64,000 bases of DNA from an uncultured Chroococcidiopsis sp. (GTDB lineage: Bacteria > Cyanobacteriota > Cyanobacteriia > Cyanobacteriales > Chroococcidiopsidaceae). This document shows positions 6,589 to 45,490 of the stretch, piece after piece. How positions within the stretch are numbered: position 1 is the first letter of the stretch; each line of letters begins with the position of its first letter. A model generated the notes under the pieces. The model was not told the origin of the DNA and searched no databases. It was given only the letters and a program-made list of their open reading frames with translations. The stretch spans positions 1 through 64,000 of the forward strand of contig CAXTYC010000017.1 of the NCBI GenBank assembly GCA_964248365.1. The letters are read 5' to 3'. A program made the translations under genes and the position numbers.

Positions 6589-6802
6589 GGCTAATTCACC
6601 CTTGATTACAGCAGATTATTTTTTCTTTTGTAACTAGACACAAATAAAATACAAATACTTGTCGCAGATCCCCCCTTGCCCCCTGAAGTTCGGGGGGAAT
6701 TAAAGTGGTCATAAGTATGCCACCCATGCCCACCATTATCAGAAGGAGTGGGCATGGGTGGCATACTATCTACTGTTCACAAATGTTTTAGGATTGCTAT
6801 AG

Positions 6803-8074
6803 CTAATAGCTTTTTTGGTCGTAAGCAATTACAAAACGTTCTGGAAAAGGACTACCTTGAAAATCAATTTTTCCTGATTCACCTGGAATCAATCTAATGT
6901 TAGGTCTTAGTAGTATTCGTTTGATTACTTCAGGAATTTCTACCATGCCAATATATTTACCAAGGCAAGTGTGATGACCATAGCCAAAGTGCATATAATG
7001 ATACTTTGGTCTTTCAAGTGAAAATGTTTCTGGTTCTGTTAGTTCACTTGCATCAAACATGGCTGAAGCTGTGCAAGCAAATACTATAGTGTTTGCTTTA
7101 ATTTGTTTTGCTCTAGAAGTGCCAGATGCTAAGGTGTAATCTTGTTCACAATATCGAAATACTAAGGGATTAATTGGATTAAAACGTAAGGCTTCCCAAA
7201 CGTATTTATCAAAGCTTTCATTATCATTAGCCTTAGCTGCTTCCAAAGCTGGTTGAAAAGTTGTTGGATTAAGCAAAATTTGCTCAAGTGCCTGTACAAT
7301 TGCCTGAGATGCTGTTTCAACACTACCAACCAGCAGCCCAGCCATATTAGTAATAATTCTTTGTTCGTCAAAGGGTATATCTTTGGGGAATTGGGTTATA
7401 ATTAACCTGGTAAAAGTATCTTCTAATCTTGTGCGATCGCATTCCTGAGCAATCTTTTCTTTTTTCTGTTTTAATAATTGCGACAGATATGCCCTCATTT
7501 CCTCCCCAGCTTTCACTGACTCCTCATGCACCTGGGTATCATTTTGTAAGTTCTTAAACATATCTGACTGAGTAGCCCTTGACCACCTATACATAGATTC
7601 CATGTCGGGACCTGGAAAGCCGAAGTAGTCGCCGCATATCCGTACTGGGACATATCTTCCCAATTGACTGACTACCTCAATCTTGCCGCTACTAGCCCAT
7701 TTATCCAAGGATTCATCGGCAATTTTTCCACACATTTCCCGCACTGCTGGCAATTCTTCCCGTTGTAGCATCGTTTGCATAATCGACTTTTCTCGCCAGT
7801 TAACTTCAGTATTATCTCTGGCAAGCATGAAAGAACCACCGACAACTGGGTCCATTTTGGGAGCATAAAGCCTAACTGAAAAAACTTCTTCCCTGGATAA
7901 TACTTCTTGTACGTCTTTAAAAAGAGTTACGAATGTGAATTTTGGTGTTTCAAAAATTGGTCGATTTTCTCTCAATTCTTTGAAGAAAGGTCGCCAGTCT
8001 GTACGAATCCAGCGGGTAACAAGTTGGACTTTTTGATCGATAGAAGCGTTGTCGTATTGTTCTAGGTATGACAT
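6803..8074 (-). CDS. Cytochrome P450
   Basis: I-helix GLLVGSVET, ExxR (WEALRF), haem motif FGYGHHTCLG; ATG at 8074 preferred over the upstream start at 8113. Confidence 0.92.
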   Translation of the reverse strand: MSYLEQYDNASIDQKVQLVTRWIRTDWRPFFKELRENRPIFETPKFTFVTLFKDVQEVLSREEVFSVRLYAPKMDPVVGGSFMLARDNTEVNWREKSIMQTMLQREELPAVREMCGKIADESLDKWASSGKIEVVSQLGRYVPVRICGDYFGFPGPDMESMYRWSRATQSDMFKNLQNDTQVHEESVKAGEEMRAYLSQLLKQKKEKIAQECDRTRLEDTFTRLIITQFPKDIPFDEQRIITNMAGLLVGSVETASQAIVQALEQILLNPTTFQPALEAAKANDNESFDKYVWEALRFNPINPLVFRYCEQDYTLASGTSRAKQIKANTIVFACTASAMFDASELTEPETFSLERPKYHYMHFGYGHHTCLGKYIGMVEIPEVIKRILLRPNIRLIPGESGKIDFQGSPFPERFVIAYDQKSY

Positions 8075-10705: not shown

Positions 10706-11593
10706 CTACTGAAAAGGTACTACATCGTGGAAGCGGCTGTAGTCTATAAAGCGCTGCCCGTTTGACTTCTTGATGATGATATCGACAAAACGCACATTCG
10801 AGATAATATCTGACGCGATATATGTATGGCGGGCGTGGATCGCTTGGGAAACAGTCTCGTCGATGCCACTTAGTGTAACTATCAGCATAGTTTCTGCTGC
10901 TGCTAGCGTTTCTGGCGTGGCTCCATAGAGGGGACTATTCTCATCAATTTGATGCATCACCGTCCAAGTTAAGAAGAAAACCGGATTTTGGCTGCGTTCC
11001 AGTTTGAGATTATAAACTCGGCGCATGAATTCCCCATCGCTAGTAATTTCATCGCGCACCAACCCTACCTGCATATGCGCTTCTAGGATCTGGTTGCGGC
11101 GCTGGTTGGCTGTGCGAAACATCAACGTTGGCACACCATCATAGCGAGCAATGACAGCTACGCGGCTGAAGAGTACCCGCGCCGTAGGTCGGGAGAACCG
11201 AGCGAACATCAGCCCTGTACCCATAGCCAACCCCATTAGACCGACCAGCGCTTCGATTGTGACTAACGCATTGGCATAGCCAGTATATGGGTACATAGTG
11301 CCATAGCCGATGGATGCCATCGTCTGGACACTAAAAAAGAAAGCATCTTGGAAGTTACCAGGGCGGGCATTTGCAATGCCATCTCCTGCGGCAAGATATG
11401 CCAAACCAAATAAGGCATTAGCAAGCACAAACCCTAAAACAATCAGCGTTAGGAAAATAGACCAAGGCATGATTAGCAGCAAATGGTAAGGGTCGCGCCA
11501 GTAGGAGTACCATTGATCCATCCCCAAAACGTTGAACTGTCCGTCCCGCTTCACAATACGTACTATTTGGCGTGGACGAAGCATTCTTTTCAT
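10706..11593 (-). CDS. Inward-rectifier potassium channel (KirBac-like)
   Basis: FFFSVQTMASIGYG pore loop, FARFSRP, FFLTWTVMHQID; start at ATG 11593 preferred. Confidence 0.9.
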   Translation of the reverse strand: MKRMLRPRQIVRIVKRDGQFNVLGMDQWYSYWRDPYHLLLIMPWSIFLTLIVLGFVLANALFGLAYLAAGDGIANARPGNFQDAFFFSVQTMASIGYGTMYPYTGYANALVTIEALVGLMGLAMGTGLMFARFSRPTARVLFSRVAVIARYDGVPTLMFRTANQRRNQILEAHMQVGLVRDEITSDGEFMRRVYNLKLERSQNPVFFLTWTVMHQIDENSPLYGATPETLAAAETMLIVTLSGIDETVSQAIHARHTYIASDIISNVRFVDIIIKKSNGQRFIDYSRFHDVVPFQ

Positions 11594-11860
11594 CGATAAG
11601 TAACTCCTAGCAAAATTTCTCGAAAAAGTAGGGCAGTTGAAGTGCTTAAAAGTGAGTTCCTTCTTGCCCTGCGACCACATATTTATTAATAGATTAATCC
11701 CGAAATATAATCTAGCAGCAATTTGGGACGGCTCTGCATCGTGTTTATAAGTATAGGCTGCTACTTATATAAAGCGGTATAAAAATAACTTAAAAGGAGG
11801 CAAAGAGCCTTGTTGCTCTCGTTACCTGGCTCTCGCAGGTAACGAAAGAGATGTCTATTT

Positions 11861-12892
11861 TTATGGTTGCCGATTATTTTTTCTTTGCGCTTTTGATTGT
11901 TTAGAGGATGTCTGGCTGTCGAATATGCGACGAATAAAATTAGGTGAAGCAGGTTTAGACATCTTTGTTTGTCTTTCATTGTCATTGCTTTTCATGCCTT
12001 GTTCAGCACGGGCTGTTGCTGTTAGAGGTATGGCATTTTTAGTTGGGACAATTTGGGAACCGAATCTTATGGCATAAACTTGAGTAAATTCTGCACCGAA
12101 AAACAGAATCTGGGCGGCATAGTTAACCCAAGCGAGGATAATTACCACTGAACCAGCTGCACCATAGGTAGAACCAAAACTGCTGTTACCTAGATACATT
12201 CCTAGCAGGAACCGACCAAAGGAGAATAGTAGTGAGGTAATAATTGCACCAATCCAAACATCACTCCAGGCAATTTTGACATCTGGTAAGACTTTGTAAA
12301 TTAGTGCGAATAAGACGGTAGTGACGATAAAAGAGAGGACAAAGTTAGCAAACTGCAACAAAAAACCGATCGCTGGTAGCAAGTTGCCCAAATAATTCAC
12401 CACCGCCGCCAAAATAGCACTCAGTATCAGAGACACGAGTAGTAAAAAGCCAACACCCAGCACCATTGTGAATGATAAAAAGCGATCGCGTACAATACCC
12501 CATAAACCGCGTCCTGGCTTTGGCTGTACGTCCCAAATCGTGTTAAGTGCATCTTGCAACTGAGCAAATAAGCCTGATGCACCAAATAGTAAGACTACTA
12601 CACTGATGATCGAAGCAATCGTTCCCGCCTGGGGTTTGCTGGCATTTTCAATTGCAGTTTCAATGAATTGCGCCCCCTCCTTGCCGACTAAACCTTGAAT
12701 TTGTCCAACTATCTCGCCTCTGGCTGCTTCTTGCCCGAATACAGCACCAGCGATCGCAATCGCAATAATCAGCAGTGGAGCAAGGGAAAAAACTGTGTAA
12801 TATGCTAATGCTGCTGCTAACCGCGAAGCCTTATCATTATTCCATTGTGCAAATGTCTCTTTCAGCAGAAGCCAGATTGTTTTGATGTTCAC
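11861..12892 (-). CDS. YihY/virulence factor BrkB family membrane protein
   Basis: LAAALAYYTVFSLAP, STYGAAGS, FFGAEFT. Confidence 0.9.
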   Translation of the reverse strand: MNIKTIWLLLKETFAQWNNDKASRLAAALAYYTVFSLAPLLIIAIAIAGAVFGQEAARGEIVGQIQGLVGKEGAQFIETAIENASKPQAGTIASIISVVVLLFGASGLFAQLQDALNTIWDVQPKPGRGLWGIVRDRFLSFTMVLGVGFLLLVSLILSAILAAVVNYLGNLLPAIGFLLQFANFVLSFIVTTVLFALIYKVLPDVKIAWSDVWIGAIITSLLFSFGRFLLGMYLGNSSFGSTYGAAGSVVIILAWVNYAAQILFFGAEFTQVYAIRFGSQIVPTKNAIPLTATARAEQGMKSNDNERQTKMSKPASPNFIRRIFDSQTSSKQSKAQRKNNRQP

Positions 12893-13215
12893 AGATAAAT
12901 CTCCTTTTTGACAGATGCAGCTTTCTTCTTATTAATTACTAGCTGAATCTTTCAGATAACAATGCTTTTGTGCATCTCTATTTAGGAGTAATTTTGTATG
13001 TATTATTCCTAAATCACATAACTCGTAAACCAGATTTATCTAGTGTTAAATATGACAATTTTTCTGGTTTATTAGCCTATTTCTTAAAGCAGAAAGTGAT
13101 TTCATTGGGGTGGTAGAAGGGAGGAGAAATAGTAATAGGTACTTTGAAATGCACGCTCCTAGCAACGCCTAAAGTCAATCTTAATAGAAAAAGCGATCGC
13201 TCGAGCTATTTCTAG

Positions 13216-14433
13216 TTACGGAAGCATTGGCTTGCTTGTTAGATAGCTGTAAATGTCTAAGTGATCTCTAACAATGTTCTGCCAAGTGAAATTTTGCCCA
13301 AAGACAATACCAGCTTTACCCAGATCACTGCGTTGATTTGGGTTATTTAGTAATTGCAGCAATTGGGATGCTAAAGCAGCAATATCTGATGGTGGTATAA
13401 GTTTAACCGGATATCCTGCTGATAATGTCGGTGGCTGGGTAGCAACAACAGGTAAGCCGTGAGCTAAAAGAGTTAAAAGTGAATCGGTGTCGAGGGTATG
13501 AGGGCGATCGCCAGGTAGTACCCCGATATCTGCGCCTGTAAGATAATGGGAAGCGGTTTGAGCGCTGACACAACCTGTAAAATGAACAAGCTGTAGCAAA
13601 CCTAATTCGCTGACAAGTGCCTGAAGTTGAACTAAATATTTTTTAGCATCTTCACCATTTAAACTAAGACTGTCAAACCCACCAAGTACTAGCAAACGTG
13701 CTTGGGGTTGAGTTAAAGATACTTGTTTGAATGCAGGTAGTAGGGTTTCTAACCCTTTACCTGGGTGCAAAAAGCCGAAGCAGACAATTATTAGTGAATC
13801 ATCAGACCAGTTGCAGTTTTGACGCAACAACTGCCGTGCCACCGTATAGTCAATTGATGCCACTTCTACATTCGCAGCGATCGGGATGTGAAATACACAG
13901 TTTTTCTTCCGTCGTAGTCGATTGTGAATTACTTTTTCAGTCTGGGTCGTAGTGGCAATTATTGCGTTACTCAATGTCAGCAAAAACCCATCTTCTCGAT
14001 CCCACCACTGGAATCCCTGCATCTTTAACCATTTTACTGATGAGAGAGAAATATTTTTAGGCTGCCATTCTTGCCATTCATACTCATGGACTGTAGTTAC
14101 TATTGGCATTCGCCATCCACTCATTCTCAAAAGCATTGGCAACAGCAATATAGCACGTTCAAAACCGTATATCTGTGCAGAGTATTGGATATGTAAAACT
14201 TCAGCTTTACTAGCGTGTACTGCTCGCACTAAGGCAAAAAGGTCGGCAAGTCGCCAATCATGTACGATGCCAATAGCATTAGGATCGTAAGCAGCCTCAG
14301 CAGCATAGTAGGTAGTAAGTACTATAGGTTCAACACAATATTCACGTAAGTTAGCACACAGATGCATAGTGTAATCTGCAACACTACAACGCTCTGGCAG
14401 ATACGTACCAGCAATCAATGCAATTCGAGTCAT
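13216..14433 (-). CDS. Glycosyltransferase family 4
   Basis: TTVHE, FGFLHPGKG, LAHGLPVVAT (GT-B motifs). Confidence 0.85.
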   Translation of the reverse strand: MTRIALIAGTYLPERCSVADYTMHLCANLREYCVEPIVLTTYYAAEAAYDPNAIGIVHDWRLADLFALVRAVHASKAEVLHIQYSAQIYGFERAILLLPMLLRMSGWRMPIVTTVHEYEWQEWQPKNISLSSVKWLKMQGFQWWDREDGFLLTLSNAIIATTTQTEKVIHNRLRRKKNCVFHIPIAANVEVASIDYTVARQLLRQNCNWSDDSLIIVCFGFLHPGKGLETLLPAFKQVSLTQPQARLLVLGGFDSLSLNGEDAKKYLVQLQALVSELGLLQLVHFTGCVSAQTASHYLTGADIGVLPGDRPHTLDTDSLLTLLAHGLPVVATQPPTLSAGYPVKLIPPSDIAALASQLLQLLNNPNQRSDLGKAGIVFGQNFTWQNIVRDHLDIYSYLTSKPMLP

Positions 14434-40111: not shown

Positions 40112-40399
40112 CTATAGCAGGGATTCGGGAGTAGCGCGAAGACAAACGCGGAGGTTTCCTCCGCGCAGAACGAGGTAAGAGAGGGAGTAGGAAGTAGGGT
40201 AAGAAGACTTGTAACAATTGTCTTCTAGTAAATTGTCTTGTCCTAATCTATCTACTTACTGCTATACCACCAAAGCTTTTTAATTTTCTGGCTCCAAATT
40301 GGGCGCTTTTTGAATTCCCTCCTGACACCTTTTTGTCACATTTGTCTAGAAAACTAGGATCGCCAATGGTTACTTCTACTCAAGCCTCACCCCCTTACC

Positions 40400-40799
40400 T
40401 CTGCTCACGATACGTAAACGACTTCAATCTACAGCAGCGAACTTATCGGGTGTATGTCCAGGCTGACGCGCATCGCTCTAATCCTGTAGATATTTGCATC
40501 TACGTGCGTTCTGCCAACAATCAGGGGATTTTCGCTGACTAAAGCGACAGTGGAAGCGGCACAAGAGCGTCTCAGACCGATTCTAATGACGGTTTTTTCT
40601 CTTATTGGGTTTTTGGCTACTGGTAATTGCCAAAGCAGGCGCACAGAGCCGACAATCTCTAGCAACTGCTGTCTTTGGTGGTTTGCTTGTCTCTACTTTC
40701 TTAAGCTTATTTGTCGTGCCAGTTTTGTATATAGTGTTTGGAAATATCCGCAAGCGCTTTGAGAGAAAGGAAGTAGGTCAAAAGTCTTGTAACAATTGA
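40400..40799 (+). pseudogene. Fragments of an HAE1-family RND efflux permease
   Basis: YVNDFNLQQRTYRVYVQADA, EAAQERLRPILMT and AVFGGLLVSTFLSLFVVPVLY in broken frames. Confidence 0.8.
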
Positions 40800-41090
40800 C
40801 TTATAGTAAATTAACTTGTCTTCATCTATCTACTTACTGCTATACAAGCTGCAAAAGTGTGTTTTTCCTTAATGCGGTTGATGGTTTGAAAAATTGAATT
40901 TTAACAGCGGCTATACAAGCAAGCTGTGCGATCGCTTTTGGTGTTGAATTGGAAAATATAATAATGTCTTGCCCTAAAAGTCACGTTTTAATACTTGTAG
41001 ATTAAAATACTACTCATCCAAGCTTAGCAATTAAGCCCAGGAAGCTGGATAACTGCACTTTTCTATAGAGAAGACTTGGAGGACAGCTAT

Positions 41091-43031
41091 ATGCCTAATG
41101 ACAAGCGTTTCCTTCGCTCCAAACGTCTTCGCGCTTTGCTATGGTACACCGCTGATGGTAAGTGCCAAAGATGCGGTTGTGAATTGCCAGATAACTTTGA
41201 TGCTGACCATATAATTCCATATTCTATTTGCAAGCAAACCAACTTTCATGAAATGCAAGTATTATGTGAAAAATGTAATAGGGAGAAAGGCGCGATGCAA
41301 TTGAGAAAACATCAAGAAGAAATGCTACAAATTTGTGACCAAATTAAAGCTGGAGTAAGTAGCGTTAAAACTATAATTGCCAGCGTCACTCCAGCAGGTG
41401 GTAAAAGCGTATTAGCAGTAATTGCTGCTGCTCGTCTAATTCCAAAAGTAGCTGATGCCATCTGTTGGATCGCACCACGTCAATCACTTCAGAAACAAGC
41501 AGAAGAGGCTTTTGCAGATGGCAGATATAGGAATTTTCTGAAGCACCATTGTGTGATTCGAGCGGCAACAAACGAATATAATCCATGTCGAGGTTATGAA
41601 GGCTACGTTACGACTTATCAAGCATTAAATGCTGATCGAAGTACTCGTATTAACGCTCAAGAATTTGCTAGAAAGCGATATATTTTATTTTTAGACGAAG
41701 TTCATCATATTGAACTGGGTAGCCCAACCCATGAAGCTATTCAGCCACTAGTAGACCACGCAGCAATTTTGATTTTAGGCAGTGGCACTTATGAACGTGG
41801 CGACGGCAAGCGGATTGCCTTTTTGCCTTATCAAGAAGTTTCGGGCGGAGTCACTCTTAACCTTGAAAATTTCAATCAGCCTGATATTGCAGTAATTCGG
41901 TATAATCGCCGCGATGCCTTGGTGGAAAAGGCTATCATTCCCTTACATTTTCAACTTTGGGATGGTCACGCCCAATGGATAGACAAGGAAGGAGAATCTC
42001 GTACAATTGAAAGTTTAGCAGAAGCTGGCGATGACACAGAGGATGGTCTGTACACAGCTCTTAATACACAGTATGCGTTTGAGTTATTGGGAGAGTGCCT
42101 CGATCACTGGAAAGCTCACAGAGAGTTTAACAGACGAGCCAAAATGTTGGTAGTAGCAGCTAACATTTCCAGTGCGAACCGTTATCTAGAGCGGTTAAAA
42201 GATCTTGGCGTTATGGCTGCGATCGCTACCAGTGCTGACAGCAAAGACGCAAAGAAAGCAATTGAGCGTTTCAAAACTCACGGTAAAGATGCAGTAGATA
42301 TTTTGGTGACAGTAGCAATGGCATACGAGGGATTGGATGTACCCGCCGTAACTCATATTGCTTGCTTAACCCATATTAGAAGCGCTCCTTGGATCGAGCA
42401 AATGGTAACGCGAGCAGCCCGTGTAGATCGTGGTAATGGCGCTTTAGACTACGATCACCAACTCGGCTTCATTTATGCTCCAGACGATCGGCTATTTCAA
42501 GAATGCATTGCTAGCATCCAAGCAGAACAAGAACCATTTTTAAAAGAACGACAGGAAAAACTGCGTAGTGAATCAAGTAGTTCTGGTAGCGAACAAAAGG
42601 AATATTCGACATTTGCTAACGCCATCATACCTTTGCTTTCTGCCGCAACTCGTGAAAGAGCAAGTGGTATAAACGGCGAAACTCTAGACTATGAAGAAAC
42701 TCAACGCATTAGGACTGCAATGGAAAGTGCTGGATTACCTGGAATTAGCCCTATCCAGTTTAAGCGAGCGTGTGAAATTTATAATTCTTATCAACCAATC
42801 AGTGACATTCCTGCCCAGTTCCGAGATCCAACCCCTAGCGAAACTGAAGATAAACTTAGGCAATATATCGAAAACCACAACCGAAAGTATGAAATACATA
42901 ATCAGCTAAAGTACGGAACCCTTAACAAAGAAATTAAGACTCGATTTGGCAAAGGTCGTGAACACATGACCATAGAGGAATTAAAGCGCGTCTGGGCATG
43001 GGTGCAAGAAAAATATCCTATCGAGGTATGA
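41091..43031 (+). CDS. HNH endonuclease-SF2 (DEAD/DEAH-like) helicase fusion
   Basis: CQRCG...DADHIIP...LCEKCNREKG; TPAGGKS, VTTYQ, DEVHH, AYEGLDVP, QMVTRAAR; GGAGGA RBS before ATG 41091. Confidence 0.85.
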   Translation: MPNDKRFLRSKRLRALLWYTADGKCQRCGCELPDNFDADHIIPYSICKQTNFHEMQVLCEKCNREKGAMQLRKHQEEMLQICDQIKAGVSSVKTIIASVTPAGGKSVLAVIAAARLIPKVADAICWIAPRQSLQKQAEEAFADGRYRNFLKHHCVIRAATNEYNPCRGYEGYVTTYQALNADRSTRINAQEFARKRYILFLDEVHHIELGSPTHEAIQPLVDHAAILILGSGTYERGDGKRIAFLPYQEVSGGVTLNLENFNQPDIAVIRYNRRDALVEKAIIPLHFQLWDGHAQWIDKEGESRTIESLAEAGDDTEDGLYTALNTQYAFELLGECLDHWKAHREFNRRAKMLVVAANISSANRYLERLKDLGVMAAIATSADSKDAKKAIERFKTHGKDAVDILVTVAMAYEGLDVPAVTHIACLTHIRSAPWIEQMVTRAARVDRGNGALDYDHQLGFIYAPDDRLFQECIASIQAEQEPFLKERQEKLRSESSSSGSEQKEYSTFANAIIPLLSAATRERASGINGETLDYEETQRIRTAMESAGLPGISPIQFKRACEIYNSYQPISDIPAQFRDPTPSETEDKLRQYIENHNRKYEIHNQLKYGTLNKEIKTRFGKGREHMTIEELKRVWAWVQEKYPIEV

Positions 43032-43052
43032 CTATAAATCAGACTCAATTAT

Positions 43053-43066
43053 AGTACAATAGTACT
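43053..43066. promoter_or_regulatory. Cyanobacterial LexA box
   Basis: AGTACAATAGTACT matches RGTACNNNDGTWCB; 22 bp after the helicase stop and upstream of the next gene. Confidence 0.6.
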
Positions 43067-43134
43067 AAATAGTTAATTCCTGACCAATATGGCTGCTGAT
43101 ACAGGGACTTGGCTGATGTAGTTAGCCTAGAAGT

Positions 43135-43905
43135 GTGATGATTTGTAGAACACTTGTGAAATCAAACATTGCCAAGGTAAGAACAGTAACGGTTGGTGAA
43201 GCAGGGGATCTCGCAGCTCCTCCAGGTTCTCAACCTTGGGCGATCGCTGTGCGACTGCAAATTCAATCTCTCCTCAAGGACAATGCTAGCAGCGTCAAAC
43301 ATCTGCAAACCTGGCTCAAAGGCATGGAGGAATATGCTGGATATCGCCAGTTAACCGATGAAAACGGTAAATTGTTTAGCTCATATGCTGCATTTTGTCA
43401 AGCTAAACCACCTTGGGGGCTTGGCTATCCTCCAGAGGTAATTGACCAGATTCTTAAGGAACTGGAGTTATTTCAAGCAGAGCAGAGTGATGAAGAAGAC
43501 AAGCAACTTAAGACTTGGGGAAATTTAGAGGGGTATTTACAGAGGTTTTCTAAGCTGGTTCAAAATTGTCCTGATAATCAGCCTATTAATGCAAGCAAAA
43601 TTAAGCAAGTATTAAATATTGGGCGCAGCAAAGCAGACCTTTGGCGAAAACGGTGGGTGGATTTGGGATGGATGGAAAAATCTGCAAATGGAGAGCGTGG
43701 CTATTACCAAATTACCGAGGAGGGGCGGAAAGTTGTAAAAGAATGGTTAGAAAAAGCGCCATCTGGTAGTACAAATGGCGAATTATGGCTAACCATTCCT
43801 CGTTGTAATTCTAAAAAGGCAGCACAGAAGCTGATTGAATCTTTAGAAGTTGACCAACTCCAAGAACTTTACAACCTAATTGGAGAATCACTCAATCAGC
43901 AGTAA
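43135..43905 (+). CDS. Uncharacterised protein with a possible C-terminal winged-helix segment
   Basis: 256 aa ORF; KIKQVLNIGRSKADLWRKRWVDLGWME...YYQITEEG resembles a wHTH; start codon uncertain. Confidence 0.65.
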   Translation: MMICRTLVKSNIAKVRTVTVGEAGDLAAPPGSQPWAIAVRLQIQSLLKDNASSVKHLQTWLKGMEEYAGYRQLTDENGKLFSSYAAFCQAKPPWGLGYPPEVIDQILKELELFQAEQSDEEDKQLKTWGNLEGYLQRFSKLVQNCPDNQPINASKIKQVLNIGRSKADLWRKRWVDLGWMEKSANGERGYYQITEEGRKVVKEWLEKAPSGSTNGELWLTIPRCNSKKAAQKLIESLEVDQLQELYNLIGESLNQQ

Positions 43906-43993
43906 CAGCAGTACTACAAAAGTAGCATCTAACCACCTGTTCAATCTTTGCGTTTCCCTGGGGTTTAAACCCCAGGCTTGCGTCGAGTGCGGT

Positions 43994-45490
43994 TCAAAAA
44001 TTCAACAACTGGGCTGTCTGCTCAGGTTTTACCAAAGTATTCGCACACAAAATACCCGACGCAGCCACAGCCGGAACCCCAATTCCTGGCATGGTGCTAT
44101 CTCCGACACGGTACAAACCAGGAATGGGAGTGTGTGAACTCGGAAACATCCCCTTACCTGCTGCAATAGCTGGACCATAAGTGCCTTGATAACGTCGCAG
44201 ATAGTAAGCATGAGTCAGCGGTGTGCCAATTAATTCCAACACGACACGCTGACGAATATCTGGAATAATGCGTTCTAAGGCACGGTATAGGGATTGCGAT
44301 CGCTCCTGTTTCTTCTGCTGATAACCCTCATCTCGTTGCCAATTGCTGTATGGTTCTAATGTATAGGCGTGAACAACATGATGACCAGGCGGTGAGAGAG
44401 TGCGATCCCAGACGGAAGGAATGGAAATCATACAGGTATTACCTGGTTCTGTAATATCCTTTTGGGCATCATGCACCACCACGTGATGTCCTGTCAAATT
44501 TTCTAAATTCTCTGCTTTTATGCCCAAATGTAGATGCATAAAACTATCAATAGCTGGTGTGGCAACAGCCTGTTGATATAATGTTGGTACTTCCGCTAGC
44601 AAATTGTTATAGGTATCCCAAATTGTGGCATTAGAAATCACAATTGGAGCTTTGAGGATTTCACCCTGACGTAACTTTACACCCGCCACCTTGCCAGATT
44701 CCAGTAAAATTTGGTCTACATGAGTGGACAATCTTAGCTCACCACCCCAACGTTGTAAACCGCGCACTAGAGCATCAACAATTGCCCCGCTTCCTCCGAT
44801 TGGGTATTCAACTCCAACATGAGAGCGTTCGCCCAACACAAAAGCAACCTCTGGGGCGATCGTACCGTGAGCTTTTAGACCTGAAAGTAAAAAGCATTCT
44901 AGATCAATCAGTCGTCGCACCCAAGGATCGCGTACTTCCCGATCCATGACTTGTCCTACTGAACCTTGGATCGTACCCAGATGAGGCAGCATTTTCACCA
45001 GCGATGGTAAATAGCTTTTGAGTAAAACCGGAATTAGTTGCCAATCTGCTCTCAAAGCTAGTGTAGGAATTCCTTGTAAAGCATCGTATAGCGGTAACAA
45101 TCGTTTGATAAATCGCTCCAGTTCGCTAGCACCTAAAGGAGTAATTTGACTGACTGCTTCTAGATAACGCTCTTGCTGACTATAAACAGGAAAAGTGCCT
45201 TCTGGAAAGTGATAATGTCCCATTGGGTCATAAGGTACAGCTGGGAGTACTTCTCCTAGTACCTCAAGCACTTGTCGCAGGGGATTGCGACTGCTGGGGT
45301 CAATCAAACCACTGTAAAAAGAGGGACCAGAATCAAATATAAATCCTCGCCGTGAGAAACTATGCGCCGCACCCCCAGCGATCGCATGGCTTTCACAAAC
45401 AATCACTCGTTTGCCATAACGAGACAACAAAGCAGCAGCGGTTAAACCACCGATTCCGCTACCAATTACAATAACGTCACTATCATACAT
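43994..45490 (-). CDS. Phytoene dehydrogenase/carotenoid isomerase family FAD oxidoreductase
   Basis: IGSGIGGL, FDSGPS, GTPLTH...GTYGP, VGDSTMPGIGVPAVAASG. Confidence 0.85.
   Translation of the reverse strand: MYDSDVIVIGSGIGGLTAAALLSRYGKRVIVCESHAIAGGAAHSFSRRGFIFDSGPSFYSGLIDPSSRNPLRQVLEVLGEVLPAVPYDPMGHYHFPEGTFPVYSQQERYLEAVSQITPLGASELERFIKRLLPLYDALQGIPTLALRADWQLIPVLLKSYLPSLVKMLPHLGTIQGSVGQVMDREVRDPWVRRLIDLECFLLSGLKAHGTIAPEVAFVLGERSHVGVEYPIGGSGAIVDALVRGLQRWGGELRLSTHVDQILLESGKVAGVKLRQGEILKAPIVISNATIWDTYNNLLAEVPTLYQQAVATPAIDSFMHLHLGIKAENLENLTGHHVVVHDAQKDITEPGNTCMISIPSVWDRTLSPPGHHVVHAYTLEPYSNWQRDEGYQQKKQERSQSLYRALERIIPDIRQRVVLELIGTPLTHAYYLRRYQGTYGPAIAAGKGMFPSSHTPIPGLYRVGDSTMPGIGVPAVAASGILCANTLVKPEQTAQLLNF

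Follow-up and report, generated by a model that had tools for sequence, protein, structure and literature searches.

A two-gene unit of a predicted HNH nuclease-helicase fusion and an unnamed partner protein in Chroococcidiopsis, phages and linear plasmids

Introduction

A stretch of 64,000 nucleotides from an uncultured Chroococcidiopsis sp. (contig CAXTYC010000017.1 of assembly GCA_964248365.1, positions 1 to 64,000), referred to here as the window, carries two genes that lie 103 bases apart on the + strand: gene A, which encodes an HNH domain fused to a superfamily 2 (SF2) helicase, and gene B, which encodes a partner protein of some 256 residues. An earlier note on this DNA had proposed that the two genes make up an uncharacterised accessory cassette for defence or DNA processing, lacking a cognate methyltransferase. 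The locus raises the question of whether the two genes are a unit at all and, if they are, what such a unit would do to DNA.

Results

The two genes occur as a unit

A search of genome contigs with a helicase profile gave 560 relatives, 79 loci of which were retained, and viral contigs contributed a further 68 loci; a single-protein helicase search added one annotated phage and 37 plasmid records, six of which were examined. All loci were scanned with domain profiles for HNH, motor, tail and partner. Thirteen of the 156 resulting helicase rows were dropped because the contig end was too close, and the remaining 143 comprised 39 with both HNH and partner, 100 with neither, three with the partner only and one with HNH only. 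The partner adjoins 39/40 HNH-bearing helicases, as against 3/103 HNH-less ones; 32 of the 39 rows, including the window's copy, were found by the helicase-only query and seven by the partner query. The partner tracks the nuclease and not the motor, and the two genes form a real and widespread unit, present in cyanobacterial chromosomes, uncultured phages, the Saccharomonospora phage PIS 136 and three Streptomyces linear plasmids. Of the viral loci found through the partner, 24 have sufficient upstream DNA, and in 16 of these an HNH lies at the distance to be expected (three on contigs already counted). Helicase distances correlate with partner distances (rho 0.92 over 34 loci, and 0.61 over the 13 non-cyanobacterial ones), as is expected of linked genes.

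On a FastTree tree rooted on two actinobacterial helicases, in which deep support is weak, the HNH and partner states show 11 and 10 changes. The combined state is scattered over the tree, including its deepest branches, and HNH-less clades, which have no conserved downstream gene, are nested inside it. This nesting suggests that HNH and partner were lost together repeatedly.

Rearranged copies were also seen. Internal deletions in P0066, L176:7821-8444 and L068:8001-9281 join the start of HNH to the end of the partner or remove the second motor lobe, from which it appears that the unit decays by deletion. In locus L018 the cassette is closely preceded by another, orphan copy of the partner (6656-7423), and directly downstream there is a 774-residue helicase-like protein with weak UvrD and GajB matches (11007-13328).

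Gene A is a predicted DNA-cutting motor protein

Gene A scores above the Pfam cut-offs for HNH_5, HNH, ResIII and Helicase_C, and its AlphaFold model has a mean pLDDT of 85.7, with RadD, Rad54 and HsdR as its best fold matches in Foldseek. Every motif from which the fusion had been recognised is in the translations: CQRCG (residues 25-29), DHIIP (39-43) and CEKCN (59-63) in the HNH domain, TPAGGKS (100-106), DEVHH (202-206) and QMVTRAAR (437-444) in the motor, and LRQYIE, LNKEIKTRFG and ELKRV in the tail. In an alignment of 85 relatives, 71 of them covering HNH, Cys 28, Cys 59 and Cys 62 are conserved in 71/71, Cys 25 and Asp 39 in 70/71 and Asn 51 in 68/71, and the DExH box and the motif VI arginines are nearly or fully invariant. 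The Walker A motif, which had been thought atypical, proves ordinary for the family, with Lys 105 present in 85/85 and only the Ala at position 102 private to the window's copy. On this sequence evidence gene A combines an intact HNH nuclease with an SF2 motor of RadD/HsdR-like type in one chain, and is predicted to be a DNA-cutting motor protein.

The C-terminal three-helix domain is retained in most relatives, HNH-bearing and HNH-less alike, and a search of the ESM Atlas with the helicase tail returned nothing. In three loci (L011:10047-10289, L052:10048-10254 and L113:9692-10372) a second copy of this domain forms a small frame of its own immediately behind the gene.

Gene B belongs to a large unnamed family

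Gene B, whose homologues begin at the position of ATG 43138 (the count of 256 residues is that from 43135), has the motif FSSYAAFCQAKPPWGLGY at residues 81-98. It falls below every Pfam and NCBIfam cut-off, with a weak Pfam match to Mrr_N (E 0.01), and gives only weak PADLOC and PHROG matches (best PADLOC E 0.002); against PDB sequences the best match of its profile has an E of 0.16. It had been described as an orphan, a description that does not survive the profile search, in which 568 clusters at 50% identity match at E<=0.001. In the ESM Atlas one homologue, P0008, matched nothing beyond the cluster of 81 hypothetical proteins to which it belongs. None of 7991 candidates was a longer, fused form of the partner, which is weak evidence. 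Foldseek against viral models gave a single match, the unnamed A0A1B1IPQ9 (E 7e-8), probably a member of the partner family.

The N-terminal domain has no profile match, and in the fold searches the winged helix filled the lists, so that residues 20-116 were barely probed there. The winged helix itself superimposes on MarR/PadR-type structures with VIA Z values of 8-9 and an rmsd of 2.3-3.2 over 76-81 residues, a likeness of fold only that stays below Pfam cut-offs. The suspected winged helix is thus borne out, although not its C-terminal placement: it is central, and two helices follow it.

A winged helix was seen only in the cyanobacterial copies of the partner. In the others a low-complexity linker usually comes after the N-terminal domain, and then a conserved helical motif that is unrelated to the winged helix. 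Three partners (P0056, P0059 and P0064) carry both modules, which suggests that the winged helix was inserted and the helical motif then lost; the exchange of the predicted DNA-binding domain in the cyanobacterial partner is described here for the first time. The stretch 43622-43697, which spans the turn, recognition helix and wing, diverges among near-identical strains in three metagenome runs, and the same is seen in close homologues. A divergent second type of N-terminal domain is homologous to that of the partner (HHalign 96%, E 3e-9) and, in phages, likewise comes after an HNH and a long helicase-sized gene. Gene B is predicted, from sequence profiles and the structure model, to be a DNA-binding partner of an unnamed family.

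A putative second start codon is kept at the HNH/helicase junction

In many phages HNH is a separate small gene, the end of which overlaps the helicase start, and the fused genes keep the start signal of the separate gene in frame at the junction. A Met lies within the last four linker residues in 41/48 scorable proteins, compared with an overall Met content of 2.1%. For 25 junctions, chosen one per lineage and nine of them cyanobacterial, the mean ribosome-site energy is -7.9 kcal/mol, compared with -2.7 kcal/mol at 263 other in-frame ATGs; energies of -5 kcal/mol or lower are reached at 23/25 junctions and at 50/263 of the other ATGs, and 22/25 junctions are stronger than their synonymous shuffles. 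The in-frame start codon with its ribosome-binding site, kept at the junction of the fused genes, is described here for the first time. From it the fused genes are predicted to encode a nuclease-free short form, which in gene A would start at Met69 and have 578 residues. A programmed frameshift as the source of the split phage forms was considered and rejected, a shared slippery motif not being apparent by eye.

Genomic contexts in phages and cyanobacteria

The phage context was read from 102 neighbour proteins scanned against PHROGs, most of which came from 137 candidate frames minus likely shadow frames, with a few added by hand and none from L145. The unit lies co-oriented within phage replication and recombination clusters. 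The HNH-less helicases accompany, in about 45 phage loci, an SbcC-like ATPase. Beside such helicases there is also an unnamed family of about 350 residues without a PHROG match; the ATPase and this family (L120:3677-6058 and L085:11719-12789; about 45 and about 42 loci) may, with the helicase, be an undescribed phage recombination module. Tandem helicase paralogues without HNH or partner occur on the phage contigs L138 and L143.

In cyanobacteria the unit is rare. The helicase was found in 0/40 relatives of the window's genome, six of them of the same genus, and the partner in 2/400 genomes phylum-wide and 8/400 order-wide, one of the eight having only a decayed fragment. A core gene conserved across the phylum is rejected on the counts for relatives and phylum. 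The 23 cyanobacterial loci and the window occupy about eight chromosomal sites, and seven of the 23 share one site just behind tRNA-Ser(TGA); no tRNA is close to the window's own copy. A scan of 133 of the 150 neighbour families (those under 110 residues were left out) found mostly housekeeping genes with scattered toxin-antitoxin genes, one locus with an integrase, and no phage structural genes. Pooled over seven cyanobacterial pairs, dN/dS is 0.12 for HNH, 0.17 for the motor, 0.27 for the tail, 0.14 for the partner N-domain (residues 20-110), 0.27 for the winged helix and 0.27 for the end helices, so that all six domains are under purifying selection in cyanobacteria, without phage genes nearby. 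Of the parts tested, the recognition helix changes fastest (0.41). Among the cyanobacterial helicases 7/23 are broken, whether by stops, frameshifts, an IS605 element or a deletion, compared with 0/23 partner open reading frames.

In one genome (G294; one contig, 99% complete) the partner is intact and the helicase was not found. At this locus (L294:3099-6843, minus strand) the orphan partner is followed by a winged-helix-like protein of 194 residues and a P-loop protein of 601 residues, neither with a Pfam or PADLOC match, and the three are possibly a separate unnamed module.

Locus layout and flanks

The features of the locus are compiled in Table 1. To the left of the pair lie an OprB-type porin and the remnant of a decayed RND transporter, and to the right a convergent flavin oxidoreductase of the Amino_oxidase family. 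The earlier note had rightly read an RND fragment and an oxidoreductase here, the latter as carotenoid-type. The G+C content of the cassette (41-46%) is no different from that of its flanks, and scans for promoters (10 versus 6.5) and terminators (5 versus 3.9) stayed near shuffle level. In a search for an empty site, the porin and oxidoreductase orthologues were non-adjacent in five same-genus genomes and an insertion boundary was not definable.

Table 1. Coordinates of the two genes, their domains and flanking features in the window
Feature	Position	Strand	Basis or remark
Gene A, HNH-SF2 helicase fusion	41091..43031	+	646 aa from ATG; Pfam, AlphaFold, fold search
Zn-binding HNH domain, residues 5-68; four Cys, D39-H40, N51, N63	41103..41294	+	Pfam HNH_5 E 9e-9
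Shine-Dalgarno-like GGGAG (41281-41285) and in-frame ATG (41295-41297, Met69)	41281..41297	+	sequence; putative start
SF2 motor core, residues 69-485; Walker A K105, DExH 202-205, motif VI Q437-R441-R444	41295..42545	+	Pfam, alignment
C-terminal three-helix domain, residues 580-645	42828..43025	+	profile and model
Gene B, partner	43135..43905	+	255-256 aa; likely start ATG 43138
Partner N-terminal domain, residues 20-116	43192..43482	+	family unnamed; better conserved than the rest of gene B
Partner winged helix, residues 131-206	43525..43752	+	VIA Z 8.8, rmsd 2.6 over 76 residues to MarR 5h3r_A
Partner C-terminal helix pair, residues 226-254	43810..43896	+	model
Decayed RND-transporter 3' remnant (flank, outside the unit)	about 40361..40760	+	frameshifted, internally deleted
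Dispersed repeat of about 70-80 bp, copy 1 (flank)	40198..40267		also delimited as 40186-40270
Dispersed repeat of about 70-80 bp, copy 2 (flank)	40776..40845		also delimited as 40768-40845

The direct repeat of about 70 bp was rejected as an attachment site: it brackets the RND remnant and not the cassette, and it has 19 blastn hits in the genome. A second dispersed repeat family, with 31 hits in the genome, lies between the partner and the oxidoreductase at 43945-43995 and includes a palindrome at 43957-43976. Metatranscriptome contig pieces from relatives span parts of both genes (four metatranscriptomes, three studies), such contigs being no proof of transcription. In run X23 a high-depth contig from RNA matches part of the helicase (42280-42668) and then continues into sequence unrelated to it, for which an amplification artefact or an insertion is the probable cause.

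Comparison with known systems

The pair belongs with the nuclease-motor modules, a known kind. The top Foldseek match of gene A is RadD (YejH; 7r7j, E 4e-12, TM 0.40), and the HsdR subunit of EcoR124I matches at E 3e-11; gene A shares ResIII and Helicase_C with motors of the RadD/HsdR type. To the RadD model NF053632 of NCBIfam it gives 23.7 bits against a cut-off of 720, a likeness in fold only, and to the curated HsdR and Res models of Type I and III restriction-modification 35.7 bits against 729 and 26.2 against 550. It differs from RadD and HsdR in its N-terminal HNH, its own three-helix tail and its partner gene, and it has no HsdM or HsdS. A methylase motif of the DPPY, NPPY or PCQ type is absent from the window's reading frames of at least 150 residues, and there is no methylase among the conserved neighbours.

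A methylase-free nuclease-motor design is shared with the Type IV enzyme SauUSI (PLD, SF2 and SRA domains), which appears in the fold search of gene A at E 3e-10. Unlike in SauUSI, HNH takes the place of PLD, SRA is absent (Pfam finds HNH, ResIII and Helicase_C only) and the DNA-binding module is on a separate gene. McrBC is likewise methylase-free, and McrB-S would be a parallel to the predicted short form: according to PMC12707154, the short regulatory form of McrB arises by internal initiation and regulates McrBC.

The resemblance to actinobacterial Rv2917-like helicases, which had been proposed for the tail, is borne out in the motor core and is weak at best in the tail. A Tsukamurella helicase, used as a stand-in for the SdrA/Rv2917 type, is hit by the motor profile over positions 21-408 (E 9e-39), and the alignment of its tail with that of gene A, in register, has a weak E of 0.1 (1.5e-6 for the phage PIS 136 tail); judged by these profiles, gene A shares its motor core with helicases of this type. 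The Tsukamurella gene, unlike gene A, has no HNH and no partner, and stands among housekeeping genes beside DUF3039 and YihY. It is presumably the orthologue of Rv2917. A table in PMC2587704 labels Rv2917 as SdrA.

ZRANB3, a eukaryotic SNF2 translocase with an HNH domain, is described in PMC5481773 as an ATP-dependent endonuclease. It joins an SF2 motor and an HNH in one chain, as gene A does, with a motor of a different subfamily, and is an analogy only. The HNH of ZRANB3 lies at the opposite end from that of gene A. Like a Type II toxin-antitoxin pair, the unit has a nuclease gene followed by a DNA-binding partner that persists alone, and toxin-antitoxin genes are common neighbours; pairs with the toxin first have the order of HigBA. 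The association of partner and HNH counted above and the existence of orphan partners fit such a pattern, which is not proof, and the putative toxin here, unlike that of a Type II pair, would be an ATP motor of 646 residues.

In PADLOC-DB 2.0.0 (2023) no system is matched by both genes over whole proteins, and the matches of gene A are partial and generic (REase_I at residues 351-445, PbeA at 59-216, and the HNH of Cas9 and PtuB). Among the models of Pfam, NCBIfam, PHROG and PADLOC there is none that names the pair. Literature searches, which also bear on defence systems described after 2023, yielded no description of it; large supplementary tables of candidate systems, those on bioRxiv included, could list it. 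Three outcomes had been named beforehand as overturning the cassette, namely that the genes do not co-occur elsewhere, that the pair is a known system or that the helicase is a syntenic core gene. None of these was found, and the proposal of an uncharacterised, methylase-free accessory cassette of two genes stands.

Discussion

We favour, at slightly less than an even chance, the reading that the unit is a self-contained, partner-guarded and ATP-driven nuclease used in DNA conflict. The two genes would make up a mobile unit in which the HNH fused to an SF2 motor cuts DNA using ATP, the motor presumably moving along double-stranded DNA like its fold relatives and delivering the HNH. Since HNH is almost never found without the partner, the partner probably guards the nuclease, restraining it, or aims it; its N-terminal domain would contact the nuclease-motor and its interchangeable helix-turn-helix or winged helix would bind DNA, at an operator or a target site. 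The nuclease-free short form may dilute or tune the activity, as McrB-S does for McrBC. Its action would be directed at the DNA of competing phages or plasmids, or would consist in killing cells from which the partner has been lost. A phage origin of the cyanobacterial copies is suggested by context and by a tree with weak support; the donor would have been a phage or plasmid on which the unit and the early genes are expressed together. The guarded-nuclease reading is favoured because it accounts for the joint loss of HNH and partner, for partners that occur as orphans, for the patchy distribution and for persistence on chromosomes without phage genes; the persistence of the partner alone, together with the bias of breakage toward the helicase, gives the asymmetry of a nuclease and its guard.

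Several observations weigh against this reading. RecT, Erf, Bet or Sak4 annealing proteins, an exonuclease, an initiator, a primase, DnaB or a resolvase lie near the unit in 18 of the 21 phage module loci scanned, and an initiator, primosomal protein or loader comes directly after the partner in six (L089, L106, L140, L142, L191 and L196), so that a replication role fits at least as well as conflict. The defence-island setting expected earlier was not seen: the 133 cyanobacterial neighbour families show no such enrichment, yielding one restriction-modification pair (Eco29kI-type, in Hormoscilla), one NACHT protein and a lone PD-(D/E)XK, and 2/26 hand-picked neighbours gave partial PADLOC matches. 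The 7:0 bias in decay is not significant alone (about 0.1 by chance after length weighting), some of the helicase breaks may be assembly errors, and decayed partner fragments are present in two other genomes (G570 and G509). The supported independent pairs, at 5:0 (p 0.06), are too few for significance. The signal at the junctions owes part of its strength to conserved Lys-Gly codons at the end of HNH, and the 25 junctions, coming from related lineages, are not independent. Finally, this helicase is upstream in only 19/36 viral and metagenome N-domain loci that have upstream sequence; some of the orphan partners adjoin primases or another helicase family and others nothing recognisable, so that the partner may serve mobile elements more generally as a DNA-binding protein.

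The strongest rival, to which we give serious weight while holding it to be short of probable, makes the unit a replication or recombination accessory in which the motor remodels forks, D-loops or junctions, the HNH nicks and the partner loads, with the cyanobacterial copies serving as an optional repair module; RadD would be the model for the motor and ZRANB3 for the pairing of motor and HNH. It accounts for the phage context and the fold better than a guarded nuclease does, given the replication and recombination genes nearby, RadD and Rad54 as the best structural matches, the primases beside orphan partners, and HNH-less relatives that stand with the SbcC-like ATPase or alone in cellular genomes, the Tsukamurella helicase among them. 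Yet in cyanobacteria the unit is rare, scattered and often broken, unlike repair genes, and an accessory role alone leaves unexplained why the partner tracks HNH and not the motor. A selfish homing-type cassette, in which cassette-free alleles next to initiator or recombinase genes of phages are cut by the HNH and repair then copies the unit into them, would suit an optional unit that recurs beside the same kinds of phage gene, small HNH genes being known homing agents in phages. It is nevertheless improbable in view of the varied insertion points (before initiators, after annealing proteins, before terminase and at about eight unrelated chromosomal sites), of long purifying selection on chromosomes, and of the flanks, for which no empty allele was found in the five same-genus genomes. 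We regard as least probable of all a two-subunit, modification-dependent enzyme of Type IV-like restriction, with the winged helix of the partner reading methylated DNA. The absent methylase, the weak Mrr_N match and the fast-changing recognition helix agree with it, and PMC12707154 has winged helices reading 6mA in DpnI/Mrr-type enzymes; the winged helix, however, is confined to cyanobacterial partners, the others bearing an unrelated helical motif, and its structural matches are generic MarR/PadR-type regulators.

The guarded-nuclease reading can be extended to a whole class of ATP-driven nuclease weapons, not described before, which temperate phages and linear plasmids would spread and cyanobacteria would have captured. 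Such a class would have armed HNH-motor forms and unarmed motor-only forms made from the conserved internal start, an unnamed partner that guards the nuclease and supplies swappable DNA recognition, and, through joint loss of HNH and partner, stand-alone helicases of the SdrA/Rv2917 type as descendants. We consider this extended picture rather unlikely as a whole.

The analysis defines a compact two-gene nuclease-motor unit and a large unnamed protein family whose range extends from cyanobacteria to plasmids of actinomycetes. With a long and a short form predicted, one simple mutation, at Met69, allows regulation to be probed directly. If the partner does guard or aim the nuclease, the unit would be a new design for defence or addiction with swappable targeting; if the unit acts instead on replication intermediates, it would supply a component hitherto missing from DNA replication in temperate phages, and a way into the poorly studied SdrA-type helicases.

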